Below, piece by piece: positions 3,021 through 64,000 of a stretch of DNA of 64,000 bases. The notes under the pieces were generated by a model. The model worked only from the letters and a program-made list of their open reading frames with translations. It did no database searches and was not told the origin of the DNA. Source of the DNA: Minisyncoccota bacterium (GTDB taxonomy: Bacteria; Patescibacteriota; Minisyncoccia; Phycocordibacterales; UBA9973); NCBI GenBank assembly GCA_041666045.1, contig JBAYHR010000001.1:119460-183459 (forward strand), given 5' to 3'. Numbering within the stretch: the first letter of the stretch is position 1; every line of letters begins with the position of its first letter. Both the position numbers and the translations under genes were made by a program.

Positions 3021-3716
3021 TTAACCTTCGTTAAAAATTGCGCGAGCTTTTTTAAGATTATAACCAAATTCTTGAGCTGATTGAAATAATGATATTCCTA
3101 AACCCATATAAGCTTCTTTATTGGCTTTTTGTTGAATATTAAAACCCAATACACATGTTGCTTTAACATCAGCTCTTTGAAAAAGAGAGATACCTAAACC
3201 AAATATTGCATTTTTACTAGCTTCTTGGTAGGAGGAAAATCCTAAAACATTTATTGCATTTCTATCACAAGATTGAAATAATGAAATTCCAATAAAAATC
3301 AGTGCATCCTGTTTTGCTTGTTGATAAAAAGAAAATCCAAAAAAATTTACGGTATCTTCTTTTGCTTTCTGAATCAAAGAAAAATTAAAAAGATGTATTG
3401 CATCTTTACCTGCTTTTTGATAAAAAGAAAATCCTGCGATAGATACAGCAGTATTGCCTGCTTTTTGAAGTAATGATAAGTCTACTAGGCAAAATGCATT
3501 TCTACCAGCTTTTTGGAATATTGAAATAAGTGAATAAATACTTCCATCTTCATTTATTCCTCCAAATAAAGAGTAAATATTTTTCCCTATTTTCCAGGGG
3601 TATGAAGCAATAAAAATTAAAATAAGGTATTTAGCTTCTATTTCAAAAAAGAAATAAGCTATAGCAGTAATTAATACAGCTAAACAAAAGTTCAAAAGAT
3701 TTTGTGTCTTTTTCAT
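3021..3716 (-). CDS. membrane-anchored protein made of about 10 tandem 16-residue repeats (consensus roughly G-I-S-L-F-Q-K-A-x-x-N-A-x-x-x-L)
   Basis: A 231-aa ORF with a hydrophobic N-terminal segment followed by repeats such as SLISIFQKAGRNAFCL, SLLQKAGNTAVSIAGF, SFYQKAGKDAIHLFNF, SLIQKAKEDTVNFFGF. The DNA shows a 48-bp periodicity. No known family was recognised. Confidence 0.55.
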   Translation of the reverse strand: MKKTQNLLNFCLAVLITAIAYFFFEIEAKYLILIFIASYPWKIGKNIYSLFGGINEDGSIYSLISIFQKAGRNAFCLVDLSLLQKAGNTAVSIAGFSFYQKAGKDAIHLFNFSLIQKAKEDTVNFFGFSFYQQAKQDALIFIGISLFQSCDRNAINVLGFSSYQEASKNAIFGLGISLFQRADVKATCVLGFNIQQKANKEAYMGLGISLFQSAQEFGYNLKKARAIFNEG

Positions 3717-13306: not shown

Positions 13307-13384
13307 GTTTTTACTTGTCCCGTACTAAATTTTTGATTACGGGATATAAAGATAAATTATTATTAATAAAATTTTAGTACTGGG

Positions 13385-14854
13385 ATGGCGAATGTTAAAG
13401 AAATCTTTGATTTAATTGAAGGTGAAATAAATAAAAAAGACGAAGAACTCATTCAAAAAGCGGCGGATTTTGCTGAAAAAGCTCATGGAGATCAAAAAAG
13501 AATGAGTGGTGAACCTTATTTTGTTCACGTTTTTGAGACTGCAAAAATTTTAGCTACTTTAGGAATGGACGCGACGACAATATCAGCAGGGCTTTTGCAT
13601 GACGTATTAGAAGATACTGAAACAAAAAAAGAAGAATTAATAAAAGAATTCGGGGAAGATATTGTTTTTCTTGTTAATGGAGTTACAAAATTAGGAACTT
13701 TGAAATACAGAGGTCATGAAAGACACGTAGAAAGTTTAAGAAAATTTTTTATTGCAATGGCAAATGATCTCCGTGTTGTTATTATTAAATTTGCTGATAG
13801 ATTACACAACTTAAATACCTTACAACACATTCGAGAAGATAAAAGAAAAAGAATAGCGCTCGAATCTATTGAAGTTTATGCTCCCCTTGCAAATAGACTC
13901 GGAATGGGAAAATTGAAAGGTCAAATAGAAGATGCTGCTTTTCCTTATGTTTATCCTAAAGAATACGCATTCATAGAAGAATTAATAAAAGAAAAAGAAG
14001 AACTATATAAGAAATATTTAACTGAAGTAAAAGAAGAACTTGAAAAAGAGCTAGAAAAAAATAAAGTAATTTTTATAAAAATAGATTATAGAATTAAATA
14101 TAAATACAGTCTTTACAAAAAATTATTGAATTACGATATGGATATGAGTAAAGTCCATGACATAGTAGCTTTACGCGTAGTGGTAAAAAATGTTGAAGAT
14201 TGTTATCGAGTACTTGGAATAGTGCATTCAATATGGAGACCATTACCAGGTAGAATTAAAGATTATATCGCTGTTCCAAAACCAAATGGATATAGAAGCT
14301 TGCATACTACTATTTTCACTGGCTCAGGTGGTATTGCTGAAATTCAAATAAGAACAGAAGAAATGCATAAAGAAGCGGCTTATGGTATCGCTGCGCATTT
14401 TGCATACAAAGAAAATAAAGGTAAAAAAATTAATGATGATAAATCAAAATTTGAATGGCTTGATGAATTGAAAGATTTAAAAAATGTTGAAGGTAAGCCA
14501 GAAAAATTTATTGAGCATTTAAAAACAGATTTTTTTAATGACAGAATATTTATTTTTACACCTAAGGGTGACGTTGTAGATTTACCAAAAGACTCAAGTC
14601 CTATTGATTTCGCTTATGCTATTCATACCGATGTTGGCAATCATATAATAAGCGCAAAAGTAAATGGCAAAATGTCTCAAATTTTTGCTAAATTAAAAAA
14701 TGCAGACATTGTCGAAATAATAAAGAAAAAAGACGCACATCCTTCTGGAAAATGGTTAGACTATACAAAAACAACCAATGCTAAAAAGCACATTAAGGCT
14801 TATTTAGAAAAAAATAGTTTACTTGCTAAACTTAAATCCTTTGGTCGTTCCTAA
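13385..14854 (+). CDS. rel: Rel/SpoT-family (p)ppGpp synthetase/hydrolase, short form with HD, synthetase and TGS domains and no ACT domain
   Basis: An HD motif HDVLEDT, a synthetase-domain region (DIVALRVVV, RSLHTTI) and a TGS-like segment are present. At 489 aa it is shorter than canonical Rel, which is about 740 aa. Confidence 0.8.
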   Translation: MANVKEIFDLIEGEINKKDEELIQKAADFAEKAHGDQKRMSGEPYFVHVFETAKILATLGMDATTISAGLLHDVLEDTETKKEELIKEFGEDIVFLVNGVTKLGTLKYRGHERHVESLRKFFIAMANDLRVVIIKFADRLHNLNTLQHIREDKRKRIALESIEVYAPLANRLGMGKLKGQIEDAAFPYVYPKEYAFIEELIKEKEELYKKYLTEVKEELEKELEKNKVIFIKIDYRIKYKYSLYKKLLNYDMDMSKVHDIVALRVVVKNVEDCYRVLGIVHSIWRPLPGRIKDYIAVPKPNGYRSLHTTIFTGSGGIAEIQIRTEEMHKEAAYGIAAHFAYKENKGKKINDDKSKFEWLDELKDLKNVEGKPEKFIEHLKTDFFNDRIFIFTPKGDVVDLPKDSSPIDFAYAIHTDVGNHIISAKVNGKMSQIFAKLKNADIVEIIKKKDAHPSGKWLDYTKTTNAKKHIKAYLEKNSLLAKLKSFGRS

Positions 14855-37555: not shown

Positions 37556-37616
37556 ATAATTTATAAAGAATAACTTAGAAAATATAACAAAAAAAATGAA
37601 TTTTGGCAAACAAAAA

Positions 37617-37650
37617 ATCACTTATATATTTATAAGTGATTTTTTGTTTA
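37617..37650. terminator. bidirectional terminator (perfect palindrome AAAATCACTTATA/TATAAGTGATTTT)
   Basis: It lies downstream of the RRM-protein gene on the minus strand and is flanked by A and T runs. Confidence 0.6.
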
Positions 37651-45034: not shown

Positions 45035-45115
45035 TAATTTATCTTGACATTTATCGTTTTAAAATGTATCCTGAGAGTAAATCTGCTCTTAAAAATAACC
45101 TTTAAAATATCAAAT
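45035..45115 (+). promoter_or_regulatory. promoter-leader module, family 2 copy 1
   Basis: TAATTTATCTTGACATTT...GAGAGTAAATCTGCTCTTAAAAATAACC...ATCAAAT ends at the ATG at 45116. It is about 90% identical to 46493-46574 and contains a -35 TTGACA. Confidence 0.5.
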
Positions 45116-45734: not shown

Positions 45735-45772
45735 CAAAAAAATGCCTATTATTTAAAATAGGCATTTTTTAT
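45735..45772. terminator. rho-independent terminator (9-bp stem ATGCCTATT/AATAGGCAT followed by T6)
   Basis: Directly after the stop of gene 45116-45733. Confidence 0.6.
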
Positions 45773-46492: not shown

Positions 46493-46574
46493 TAATTTAT
46501 CTTGACATTTGTTATTTTAAAATGTATCTTGAGAGTAAATCTGCTCTTAAAAAATAACCTAAAAATATCAAATT
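46493..46574 (+). promoter_or_regulatory. promoter-leader module, family 2 copy 2
   Basis: It begins 4 bp after the IS right end and ends at the ATG at 46575. Confidence 0.5.
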
Positions 46575-61295: not shown

Positions 61296-61335
61296 CTTAA
61301 AACATAAAATCCTCGTTGAATTAAACTCAACGAGG
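61296..61335. terminator. bidirectional terminator (13-bp stem AAATCCTCGTTGA/TCAACGAGGATTT)
   Basis: Between the convergent genes 60507-61289 and murF. Confidence 0.65.
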
Positions 61336-61359
61336 ATTTTTTATTTCTTATTTTTTATT

Positions 61360-62655
61360 TTATTCTTTATTCAACCATTCTTTATCTTGCCGTACCAATA
61401 ACTTATCTTTATTTTCTTTATCCTTAAGGATAGTCGCCACAATACGCTCCATACGCATACCTTGAGATCCTTTCACTAAAATAAGATCATTCTTTTTAAT
61501 AAAAGTTTCTAGAAACTCCCCTGTTTCCTTGGAATCTAAAAATTCAAAAATATCTTTTTCTTTCATTCCAGCCTCTATTGCTCCTTCTTTTATCTTCTTT
61601 GCTCTGTTGCCCACAACAACAAGTATTTTCACATTTTCTTCTGCAATTTTACCTATATTTTTATGTGCATCTTCTGTGTGCTTACCAAGCTCTAACATAT
61701 CTCCCAAAACTGCTATTTTTCTCCCTTTTAATTTTATATCTGATAAAGTTTTTAATGCTGATTCGCAAGCAAAAGGAGAAGAATTATAAGTATCATCTAT
61801 AATCAACGAATCTTTTATACCATCCAGTAAACACATTCTGCCTGGAGGTACTTCGTATCGCTTTAATGCCTCAACGGCATTCAACATATTAAATTTCAAA
61901 CCAAAAGCTAATGCTAAAGATGCTAAAGATGCATAAACATGATTTCTTCCAAATACTCCTTCTATAATTACGGGCAAACTTTTTCCATCTTCATCTACTC
62001 TAAAAACAATACCTTGAAGCTTCCCGTCTTCTGTATAAAAAATATTCTCCTCAGAGCCGAGCACATCTGCTCCTTCTTTAAATCCATAAGTCATCACGCG
62101 ATTCTTCGTTTTCCCTTTCATGCTAGCTACAGCTTCATCATCAAAATTCAAAACCAAAAGTCCATCTTTTTTTAATGTTTTTATGAGTCCGCTTTTTTCT
62201 TTTATTAAATGTTCTCGTGAATTAAAAAATTCAATATGCACTGGAGTGTCTCCTATTGTTGTAAATATAACTGCATCAGATTTCACCCAAGAAGCTGTTT
62301 TTTTCATATCACCTGGCTTACCAACACCAACTTCAAGAACAAGCCATTGGGGATATTTATGAGGCAAAATAAAAAGCAAAAATCCTTTTAAAATATTTTT
62401 CAACCAAATATAAGGATCATCCCAACCATTTGGACACCCTAAAATAGTAAGGGGTAACCCTATTTCACTGTTATAACTTTTTTCACTTTTGCGAACATAA
62501 GCAAATTGTGAAATTATTGCGTAAACTGCATCTTTTGTAGAAGTTTTGCCAACAGATCCAGTGATAGTAATAACTTTTGGTTTATATTTCCAAAGTACAA
62601 GCTGTGATTCTATTTTTAAAATTAATGATATTATATTTTTAAAAGTTTCTTTCAT
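61360..62655 (-). CDS. murF: UDP-N-acetylmuramoyl-tripeptide--D-alanyl-D-alanine ligase
   Basis: The Mur ligase P-loop ITGSVGKTSTKD and the central and C-terminal domains are present. Confidence 0.9.
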   Translation of the reverse strand: MKETFKNIISLILKIESQLVLWKYKPKVITITGSVGKTSTKDAVYAIISQFAYVRKSEKSYNSEIGLPLTILGCPNGWDDPYIWLKNILKGFLLFILPHKYPQWLVLEVGVGKPGDMKKTASWVKSDAVIFTTIGDTPVHIEFFNSREHLIKEKSGLIKTLKKDGLLVLNFDDEAVASMKGKTKNRVMTYGFKEGADVLGSEENIFYTEDGKLQGIVFRVDEDGKSLPVIIEGVFGRNHVYASLASLALAFGLKFNMLNAVEALKRYEVPPGRMCLLDGIKDSLIIDDTYNSSPFACESALKTLSDIKLKGRKIAVLGDMLELGKHTEDAHKNIGKIAEENVKILVVVGNRAKKIKEGAIEAGMKEKDIFEFLDSKETGEFLETFIKKNDLILVKGSQGMRMERIVATILKDKENKDKLLVRQDKEWLNKE

Positions 62656-62775
62656 CCCGTACGAAATAGGAAATCTTTAGATTTCCGTAGTTAACTTATT
62701 TATAATAATTTCTATATACTTCATAATTTATTTATCCCAAGAAACATAATTTAACTTCTTAATTTCGTACGGGAT
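62654..62775. repeat. inverted-repeat element, copy B
   Basis: 14-bp perfect terminal inverted repeats ATCCCGTACGAAAT at 62654-62667 and ATTTCGTACGGGAT at 62762-62775. The internal perfect palindrome GGAAATCT-TT-AGATTTCC lies at 62669-62686, and the left arm overlaps the murF start codon. Confidence 0.7.
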
Positions 62776-62786
62776 TCATTAATTTT

Positions 62787-64000
62787 TTACCTATCAGGTG
62801 GAACTTCATAATAATTTAATAAAAATTTTGTTAAATCTAGAAATGGATCTGCCCAAGTTTGTGAAGCATAAGAAACTCCTTTAGGATTTACAGCATAAAG
62901 AAAAATTATAAATTTAGGATCATATGCGGGGAAATATCCAAAAAAAGAATGTGTATGCCTATCTTCATAATATCCTCGCCCATCTTCTTTAGCAACTTGC
63001 GCTGTACCAGTTTTAACTGCAACAGAATAATGATCCATTTTAGCAAGACCACCTTTCAATGATTTATCCATCACAGTTACCAACATTCTAGTAATTTCTT
63101 CTGAAGTTTTTTCTGAAATTTTTACACGGGAAGTCGGATAAGATATTTCTTTTTCTGTACCATCATTATATTTTATAGTTTTTGCAATATGCGGGACAAC
63201 TAAATTTCCTCCATTAGAAAGTGAAGCTAAGGCGCGAATAATCTCAACTGGAGTAAGCGCTATCCCTTGCCCGAAAGACGCATTCGCATATTCAAGATCA
63301 CGTGGACTTTGCAAATTTGACACTAATCCGCTTGTTTCATTAGGCAGGTCAATCCCTGTCTTTTTTCCTATGTCATAAGAAAGTAAATAATTTCGCATAT
63401 TTTCATGTCCTAATTTATTAAATACAAATACCATACCAGTGTTTAATGATTGATTCAAAACTTCTTGCATATTTACCACACCACGGGCTTTTTTATCAAA
63501 ATTATATATTTGTTTATTTTCAACAATCACAGAACCTTTGTCGTCATATTTAGTTTCTGCAGTTACAACACCAACATCAAGGGCGGCTGCCATAACTAAA
63601 GGCTTCACAACAGAACCAAATTCAAAAACATTTTCCACTAATGGATTTGAAAAAGTTGAAACATCTTTTATTTTAGAAAAATTATTTAAATCAAAATCAG
63701 GCTTCACTCCCATTGCATAGACAGAACCATCAATAGGATTCATTATTATTCCACCAATAGAATCAACATTGTATTTCTGTTTAACTTCTGTAAGTTTTTT
63801 TTCTAAAAATCCCTGAACTGCCGGTTCTATCGTTGTAACTATATTTCCAGCTTTTACATCATTTTTAAATAAAGTTTTATTAATATTTGAAAAAACTTCA
63901 GCAAAAAAATTTACATACGGATTATCTTTATTTCTCGCAAGCTCCTTATTATATTGTCTTTCAAGACCATAACGTCCGCTAAGTTCATCCCCTTTATATC
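62787..64000 (-). CDS. penicillin-binding protein transpeptidase (PBP2/FtsI-like), 5' end beyond the window
   Basis: SxxK (SVVK), SGN-like and KTG (KTGTAQ) motifs are present. The frame stays open upstream of the tracked Met at 63743 (...TIEPAVQGFLEKKLTEVKQKYNVDSIGGIIMNPIDG), so the N-terminal domain continues past 64000. Confidence 0.85.
   Translation of the reverse strand, partial: YKGDELSGRYGLERQYNKELARNKDNPYVNFFAEVFSNINKTLFKNDVKAGNIVTTIEPAVQGFLEKKLTEVKQKYNVDSIGGIIMNPIDGSVYAMGVKPDFDLNNFSKIKDVSTFSNPLVENVFEFGSVVKPLVMAAALDVGVVTAETKYDDKGSVIVENKQIYNFDKKARGVVNMQEVLNQSLNTGMVFVFNKLGHENMRNYLLSYDIGKKTGIDLPNETSGLVSNLQSPRDLEYANASFGQGIALTPVEIIRALASLSNGGNLVVPHIAKTIKYNDGTEKEISYPTSRVKISEKTSEEITRMLVTVMDKSLKGGLAKMDHYSVAVKTGTAQVAKEDGRGYYEDRHTHSFFGYFPAYDPKFIIFLYAVNPKGVSYASQTWADPFLDLTKFLLNYYEVPPDR

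Follow-up and report, generated by a model that had tools for sequence, protein, structure and literature searches.

The Correia elements of Neisseria (also called NEMIS or CREE) are flanked by a TA duplication, end in 26-bp repeats and lie at variable distances from the neighboring genes; their stem is a target of RNase III and some of them carry promoters. The element described here is a small palindromic insertion that ends on the start codon of the gene it precedes, and was examined in a 64,000-nucleotide stretch of DNA (the window) that forms part of a 265-kb metagenome contig of a Minisyncoccota bacterium (JBAYHR010000001.1, positions 119,460 to 183,459, assembly GCA_041666045.1), where one full copy stands before murF (copy B) and another before frr (copy A). 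It resembles the Correia elements in being non-coding and about 100–150 bp long, in its terminal inverted repeats, short target duplication and many gene-adjacent copies, and in a stem that would be transcribed together with the gene. It differs from them in that it duplicates ATGNN, sits exactly on start codons, has arms of 12–14 bp and occurs in hosts of the candidate phyla radiation (CPR), and no sequence relationship between the two is apparent.

Partial likenesses to other systems can also be drawn. Mycobacterial interspersed repetitive units (MIRUs) are small repeats between operon genes, and their short open reading frames (ORFs) overlap or abut the neighboring stop and start codons, which has been interpreted as preserving translational coupling; unlike the present element they are direct repeats arranged in tandem, and both the long terminal inverted repeat and the duplicated start codon are missing from them. 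Rickettsia palindromic elements (RPEs) are likewise palindromic selfish DNA in a reduced genome, located at non-destructive sites and vertically inherited, but they lie in frame inside ORFs and are translated, whereas the element lies outside the ORF and has stops in the frame of the upstream ORF (uORF) that begins at its duplicated start codon. In translational bypassing (the gap of T4 gene 60 and the mitochondrial "byp" inserts of Magnusiomyces) identical codons, which serve for take-off and landing, flank a stably folded insert of mobile origin; bypassing, however, takes place inside ORFs with peptidyl-tRNA, while the matched codon is here the initiator AUG, and only the matched AUGNN and a stable fold are seen. 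Ribosome shunting of the cauliflower mosaic virus (CaMV) type involves the same succession of a short uORF, a large stem and the main ORF. The ends of the intervening sequences of bacterial 23S rRNA also pair into a long stem, and these inserts are removed by RNase III with the host RNA unharmed; they differ in their location in rRNA, in having no target duplication and in bearing no relation to a start codon.

The element belongs to a large, old and apparently undescribed family of small palindromic insertions that resemble miniature inverted-repeat transposable elements (MITEs) and are specific to Paceibacteria/Nomurabacteria; full-text searches of the literature on CPR, Parcubacteria and Patescibacteria returned no description of it. 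That these are insertions 5' of the start, with a repeated ATGNN, empty orthologous sites, a terminal stem, an inner hairpin and diverse essential host genes, is very probable. The complete account, which joins this old MITE-like family to an unmasking of the true start codon by translation of the uORF in the mRNA, is held with slightly better than even confidence, and the unmasking step taken by itself is a tentative proposal, somewhat short of an even prospect.

To our knowledge, gene expression in CPR bacteria is almost unstudied by experiment. The family provides natural experiments by the hundred: a stable structure of 120 nt stands between the promoter or the upstream cistron and the start of an essential gene, and the genes have remained functional in the long term. 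An explanation would reveal the mode of translation initiation in these bacteria (leaderless, by re-initiation or after RNA processing). The family would also put on record a mobile element that inserts at the start codon itself. In addition, annotations of Paceibacteria contain odd "intergenic gaps" and upstream ATGs that are spurious, both of which the elements account for, and the elements offer a lineage marker.

Insertion at start codons and the repeated ATGNN

In copy B the plus-strand arms ATCCCGTACGAAAT (62654–62667) and ATTTCGTACGGGAT (62762–62775) form an inverted repeat that is perfect over 14 bp and encloses 94 nt, and the inner palindrome GGAAATCTTTAGATTTCC (62669–62686, plus strand) has a perfect 7-bp stem and a loop of 4 nt; 2 nt of the arm belong to the start codon of murF (minus strand, 62655..62653). 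Copy A has the same layout, with arms at 24516–24529 and 24625–24638, the frr ATG at 24517..24515 and a hairpin (24531–24548) with a single mismatch, which reads A.C on the plus strand and G.U on that of the gene. An earlier account of this DNA drawn from its letters (the sequence-only reading) had described the perfect inverted repeat, the palindrome intact in one copy and mismatched in the other, the overlap with the murF ATG and the leader architecture common to frr and murF, and the coordinates bear out all four. It was mistaken in holding that the element fills the whole gap between murF and the preceding gene for a penicillin-binding protein (PBP), since 11 nt lie between the PBP stop (62787–62789) and the arm. 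The neighbor upstream of frr is a holB-like gene (DNA polymerase III delta') and not pyrH. Three further features went beyond that account: a duplicated start codon, hundreds of copies across a bacterial class, and a degenerate third copy in the window (13318–13385).

The duplicated start codon of copy B is a second ATGAA found within the 11-nt interval, and the inserted DNA as delimited by the family statistics given below is TCCCG...CGGG (62656–62774). The direct repeat around copy A is ATGTTAT (24637–24643 and 24511–24517), where the match happens to reach 7 nt.

Two samples were used to examine the register of the insertion across the family. The first was found via an 18-nt hairpin core and comprises 115 arm-defined elements in 8-kb genome loci, with 107 arm-defined elements at ORF starts; the second, of 127 elements, comes from an independent metagenome scan that specified the arms only, and the duplication test was repeated on it because the first sample had been ascertained through the hairpin. 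An ATG opening a long ORF directly follows the element in about 105 of the 115 genome copies, which were not selected for it, and a long ORF follows 118 of the 127 metagenome copies. On the other side, an ATG is placed 6 nt before CCCG in 73 of 107 elements of the first sample and in 87 elements of the second. The base after this ATG is identical in both repeat copies in 69 of the 73 cases of the first sample (the best of 20000 permutations gave 45). In the arms-only sample the fourth base is identical in 83 of 87 cases and the fifth in 83 of 87 as well, including G with G in 13 of 16, while the sixth is always T upstream, has background frequency downstream and shows no correlation. As the fourth and fifth bases match and the sixth does not, the repeat is exactly ATGNN and the inserted DNA is TCCCG...CGGG; a 6-bp duplication needing T at position 6 is ruled out by the background frequency of the downstream sixth base. 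The duplication measures 4–7 nt in a minority of copies, and copies located off start codons have perfect flanking repeats of 6–7 nt (GTGAAAC, GTCAAC, ATTGAT).

Two of the atypical loci deserve separate mention. In locus L056 (1077–1158) the element lies 3 nt further into gatA, with the repeat ATTGAT, so that the gene copy after the element starts ATT GAT TTG and has no ATG; either the gene is damaged or it starts at a rare AUU/UUG codon. In locus L062 (6917–6965) a minimal element of 48 nt, flanked by a perfect GTCAAC duplication, lies in the frame of a same-strand ORF (a putative gene), one possible case that recalls the RPEs.

The proteins encoded after elements were searched against all loci, which gave 146 ortholog comparisons without an element and 66 with one. 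Alignments of empty and occupied orthologous sites show a clean insertion plus a duplication. The rpmE gene of the window (39437) is empty and its ortholog in L062 is occupied, with conserved upstream sequence and the upstream ATG at the ancestral position; a second pair (L070 empty, L053 occupied) has 79–86% amino-acid identity. Site-specific insertion at an AT core without duplication is ruled out by these alignments. The family thus combines several features that define MITEs (shared terminal inverted repeats, a fixed 5-nt target duplication, presence or absence at orthologous sites and multiple copies), and the origin of the element is, as judged from the aligned sites, a MITE-like insertion. 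The mobile leader suggested by the sequence-only reading is supported as to its origin, by the flanking 5-nt duplication and the orthologous empty sites. The possibility of an integron attC site was rejected, as copy B has GTACGAA and not GTTRRRY and the elements precede genes and carry a target duplication.

The genes located after elements represent at least 97 Pfam families of diverse housekeeping functions, among them frr (twice), murF (twice), pth, ssb, rplD, rpsS, rplL, hpf, and gatC. Judged by gene content, these hosts form no specific regulon, and their expression clearly survives the insertion; co-regulation of frr and murF, proposed from the two window copies, is neither shown nor specific, the same architecture standing before all of these families. 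Folding of the gene-strand RNA yields the long-range stem and the inner hairpin in both window copies (z = -3.8 for copy B and -3.6 for copy A; 0 of 200 shuffles were as stable). A conserved structure over the start codon with z near -3.7 would also be expected of a cis-regulatory leader that was never mobile, evolved in the host in the manner of a riboswitch or thermosensor and spread by descent or convergence. Such a leader is disfavored and very improbable, given that the downstream gene families are unrelated, that the flanking 5-nt duplication covaries with the gene's own second codon, that orthologous empty sites exist and that the interior is not conserved. Rfam likewise offers no match: Rfam 15 recognized only tRNAs in the window at the gathering threshold, and at E<=1 it returned nothing on the elements in four loci with five elements.

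Extent and age of the family and constraint on its fold

Genomes and metagenomes of Nomurabacteria/Paceibacterota yielded more than 230 related elements. The 18-nt hairpin core has 117 exact matches in more than 114 GTDB genome stretches, nearly all of them metagenome-assembled genomes (MAGs) of Nomurabacteria, Paceibacterota or Parcubacteria; the few matches in other taxa are attributed to chance because the arms are absent there. Neither the core nor the arms pattern was found in viral contigs. The inserted DNA (5'-TCCCGT...ACGGG-3') measures 53–135 nt and occurs as minimal forms of 53–65 nt, forms of about 80 nt and forms in which the stem is prolonged as a GC-rich duplex. Arms of the type (A)TCCCGT followed by TAGA or ACGA are common to the long, short, GC-rich and minimal families, which have unrelated interiors, and some subfamilies have only the terminal 12 nt or so of the arms in common. 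The orientation to the gene is uniform in the long family (83:0), and one short family is consistently inverted (8:0). The contig carries three copies in the window and two more elsewhere, and single MAGs contain up to 7 among the matches listed. Past the window end short-family copies stand before ftsA and ybeY (L001, 2620–2700 and 3060–3130); the ftsA copy begins inside the end of ybeY and contains GTGATATAAT, and the first 25 nt of the third window copy are identical to it.

The mean interior identity is 0.63 within genomes and 0.63 between genomes, and 0.9 is not reached by any of these pairs. Identity is higher among copies at orthologous genes (0.74–0.96), which indicates vertical inheritance.

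The arms have been conserved as pairs. All 14 pairs are perfect in 79 of 107 copies, and 1465 of 1498 pairs are Watson-Crick. The arms of copies A and B differ at three positions, each of them compensated in the partner arm, and four positions of the outer stem switch between Watson-Crick pairs among the 89 aligned copies from which a covariance model was built, with both sides changed in 21, 20, 33, and 36 copies (these are copies related by descent and the events are not independent). In the orthologous copies of five species the interiors differ at about one fifth of the positions, and the arms (TTAGAAGT/ACTTCTAA, TACGAAGT/ACTTCGTA, or ATTACG.../...CGTAAT) are always complementary by way of compensated changes. 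Compensatory conservation of pairing, which the sequence-only reading had proposed from two copies, is strongly supported and extends to further copies.

The inner hairpin shows a different kind of conservation. Its sequence is invariant in the Nomurabacteria subfamily and present in only 4/127 elements of the arms-only sample, by which count the invariance is a search artifact. A hairpin with a stem of at least 7 bp adjoining the 3' arm is nevertheless found in 25% of these unbiased elements vs. 2–5% of controls, with about 45 different stems (e.g., GGAAGTC/GACTTCC, GGTTGTC/GACAACC, GGTCACC/GGTGACC). On a comparison of these stems the hairpin is conserved as a structure rather than as a sequence, and a purely selfish transposon end would be expected to behave otherwise. 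The paired arms and the structural hairpin point to selection in place, most likely exerted on the transcript.

A simpler possibility is that the family consists of purely selfish or neutral MITEs, with arms that are transposase binding sites only, a start-codon position that results from a preference for ATGNN targets and the survival of harmless insertions, and an RNA structure devoid of function. Terminal inverted repeats, the 5-nt target duplication, empty sites and the same ends on unrelated interiors are what this would predict, and it is also compatible with the inverted subfamily. It is considered improbable, as young copies are absent, the arms are perfect while the interiors diverge, orthologs change both arms together and the hairpin is kept by covariation. 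Nor would it predict the fixed register, with ATG directly after CGGG in about 105/115 copies, or the fifth base of the repeat, which is a purine, able to pair with the U of AUG (A-U or G.U), in 86/87 cases vs. 61% in the background.

Other properties of the interior were considered. An intrinsic terminator is ruled out by the 94-nt loop and the lack of a U tract, the inner hairpin being weakly terminator-like in copy B but not in copy A. A second interior helix (AGTTAAT/ATTAACT) has a fixed register, yet its length is no better than that of swapped or shuffled controls. An internal ACGGGA/ATGGGAT motif located about 25–35 nt from the 5' end occurs in 37/107 elements vs. about 10 expected and is not universal; in copy A it is AUGGGAU in the 24596–24602 region of the minus strand. 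This motif could compete with the 3' arm for pairing with the 5' arm, and the alternative fold would free the start codon.

Initiation context and expression of the host genes

The extended -10 motif TGnTAnnnT has a sharp peak 6–7 nt upstream of the ATG in 474 ORFs of these genomes that bear no element, and many genes are therefore transcribed from their own start codon. Occupied sites have the same peak when it is measured from the upstream copy of the ATG (copy A is an example), while copy B lies inside an operon. Shine-Dalgarno motifs are scarce in the window and in Paceibacteria loci. On the basis of these motif distributions leaderless mRNAs appear to be used heavily by Paceibacteria; no paper stating such heavy use for CPR bacteria was found.

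The uORF-unmasking account would operate in this context as follows. The element would be transcribed together with its gene, and in the mRNA the start would be occluded by the stem, in which the first two bases of the true AUG and the 12 bases preceding them would be paired; as Shine-Dalgarno sequences are seldom used in this organism, an AUG hidden in this way should be silent. The duplicated AUG would retain the ancestral initiation context, namely a leaderless 5' end for frr and a position 8 nt past the PBP stop for murF. A ribosome engaged on the short uORF would cross the 5' arm, melt the stem and free the true AUG, so that expression of the host gene would remain coupled to the original initiation signal. 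The insert would be tolerated only as long as the stem and the register are intact. Dependence of expression on the fold would explain the selection in place on stem and hairpin even though the element apparently no longer moves, and the purine at position 5 of the repeat would reflect the requirement of a stem in which this base pairs with the U of AUG. The uORF always extends at least 4 codons into the 5' arm; that of copy B (AUG AAU CCC GUA CGA AAU UAA) spans the entire arm and its stop comes directly after it. A conserved leader peptide is ruled out, as the uORFs have 4–43 codons and are similar only as far as the arm imposes.

Selection on pairing would also be explained, without a uORF, if the element were an intervening sequence excised by RNase III, the terminal stem being cut at its base to leave an mRNA whose 5' end coincides with the true AUG or precedes it by a few bases and which is near-leaderless. 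With heavy use of leaderless promoters such an end would be a natural ribosome substrate, and in many members the stem reaches a GC-rich duplex of about 24 bp, which is a better substrate for the enzyme. RNase III has been retained in CPR bacteria (PMC12641178). With 14 bp, however, the stem of the window copies is short for this enzyme, and excision would leave the arm-proximal hairpin and the kept upstream ATG unexplained; it is viewed as unlikely. A wider conjecture, which also seems rather unlikely, would regard the elements as start-codon-specific mobile "mRNA intervening sequences" of a clade dependent on leaderless mRNAs; they would land on and duplicate the first five bases, both transcribed and translated, and be neutralized at the RNA level either by excision at the stem base, which would regenerate the leaderless message, or by ribosome transfer from the duplicated to the true AUG across the fold. 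Some copies might since have come to serve housekeeping genes as common points of translational control.

A further alternative acts at the level of DNA: a mobile promoter/operator cassette, with an outward extended -10 promoter and a palindromic protein site between promoter and gene, would bring many genes under one regulator. TGnTATAAT is conserved in the subfamily with AAGT arms, including five orthologs whose ancestral upstream promoter and ATG decay, the short family of the window genome carries GTGATATAAT, and the Nomurabacteria hairpin is a perfect 18-bp palindrome that is also found inverted. The cassette is nonetheless quite improbable: copy B has no predicted minus-strand promoter and copy A just a weak one, the rarity of the hairpin sequence in the unbiased copies (4/127) argues against one shared operator, and the pairing of the arms would have no explanation. 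An internal ORF or promoter conserved in all copies was also ruled out, as TGnTATAAT occurs in some subfamilies only and is not predicted in copy B.

Several observations weigh against the combination of an old MITE-like family with uORF unmasking. About 15% of the copies lack the upstream ATG (lost), and neither the length nor the peptide of the uORF is conserved. In one subfamily TGnTATAAT is conserved inside the element, about 60 nt before the gene; a transcript starting from it would lack the 5' arm, yet the arms are kept. The short subfamily bears the whole element inverted with respect to the gene, which fits a strand-neutral role at the DNA level more easily. Mismatches of the G.U type outnumber A.C (15 vs. 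5), but the counts are 5 vs. 5 once the outermost pair is excluded. As to mobility, no transposase-bearing partner with the same ends and no unpaired or distantly paired arms were found in the 115 loci of 8 kb (about 0.9 Mb), and the near-identical copies that mark recent movement in MITEs are absent (best within-genome interior identity 0.88).

Features of the window

The coordinates of the element copies and of the associated features are collected in Table 1. Scanning of the window with the covariance model returned two strong copies and one weak match at 13309–13394. The latter corresponds to the third copy, which ends on the ATG of a RelA/SpoT-like gene (13385–14854, plus strand) and is preceded by GTGCTATAAT.

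Table 1. Element copies, their parts, adjoining genes and terminator-like hairpins in the window.
Feature	Position	Strand	Remarks
Element copy B (murF), inverted repeat to inverted repeat	62654..62775	-	Covariance model 113.8 bits, E 1e-15
Copy B 5' (promoter-distal) arm, mRNA strand, AUCCCGUACGAAAU	62762..62775	-	
Copy B 3' arm, mRNA strand, AUUUCGUACGGGAU	62654..62667	-	Final two bases are AU of the murF AUG
Copy B arm-proximal hairpin, GGAAAUC-UAAA-GAUUUCC	62669..62686	-	One base off the 3' arm
Upstream ATGAA of the 5-nt direct repeat (duplicated start codon)	62775..62779	-	8 nt past the PBP stop
Downstream ATGAA of the direct repeat	62651..62655	-	True murF start
Potential 6-codon uORF (MNPVRN*) from the duplicated ATG	62759..62779	-	Read from sequence
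murF	61360..62655	-	431 aa
PBP/FtsI-type transpeptidase gene, 3' part	62787..64000	-	569 aa in the full contig
Element copy A (frr)	24516..24638	-	Covariance model 97.7 bits
Extended -10 box TGATATAAT, leaderless-type promoter	24650..24658	-	6 nt upstream of the duplicated ATG of copy A
Third copy, degenerate, short family, TCCCGTACTAAAT...ATTTTAGTACTGGGA	13318..13385	+	Covariance model E 0.7
Perfect 14-20-bp short-loop hairpins with A-run/T-run flanks	622-654, 2875-2907, 20553-20583, 37608-37649, 45737-45770, 61306-61340		

Perfect 14-nt inverted repeats with a loop of at most 150 nt amount to 13 pairs (8 structures) in the window, vs. 0.5 expected from Markov simulations. Copies A and B are the only structures among the 8 with a loop of about 94 nt; the other six are the short-loop hairpins listed in Table 1, which look like bidirectional intrinsic terminators.

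Repeats of other kinds also occur in the window. At least five copies of a periodic repeat of 48/96 nt with 60–70% identity are found at 3082–3434, which is probably part of a repeat-containing protein encoded on the minus strand. Two pairs of direct repeats (660–756 vs. 2241–2337 and 45035–45115 vs. 46493–46573) of about 80–97 nt and 89–92% identity contain promoter-like TTGAC... sequences and extend to gene starts; paralogous genes with duplicated promoter/leader regions are the probable explanation.

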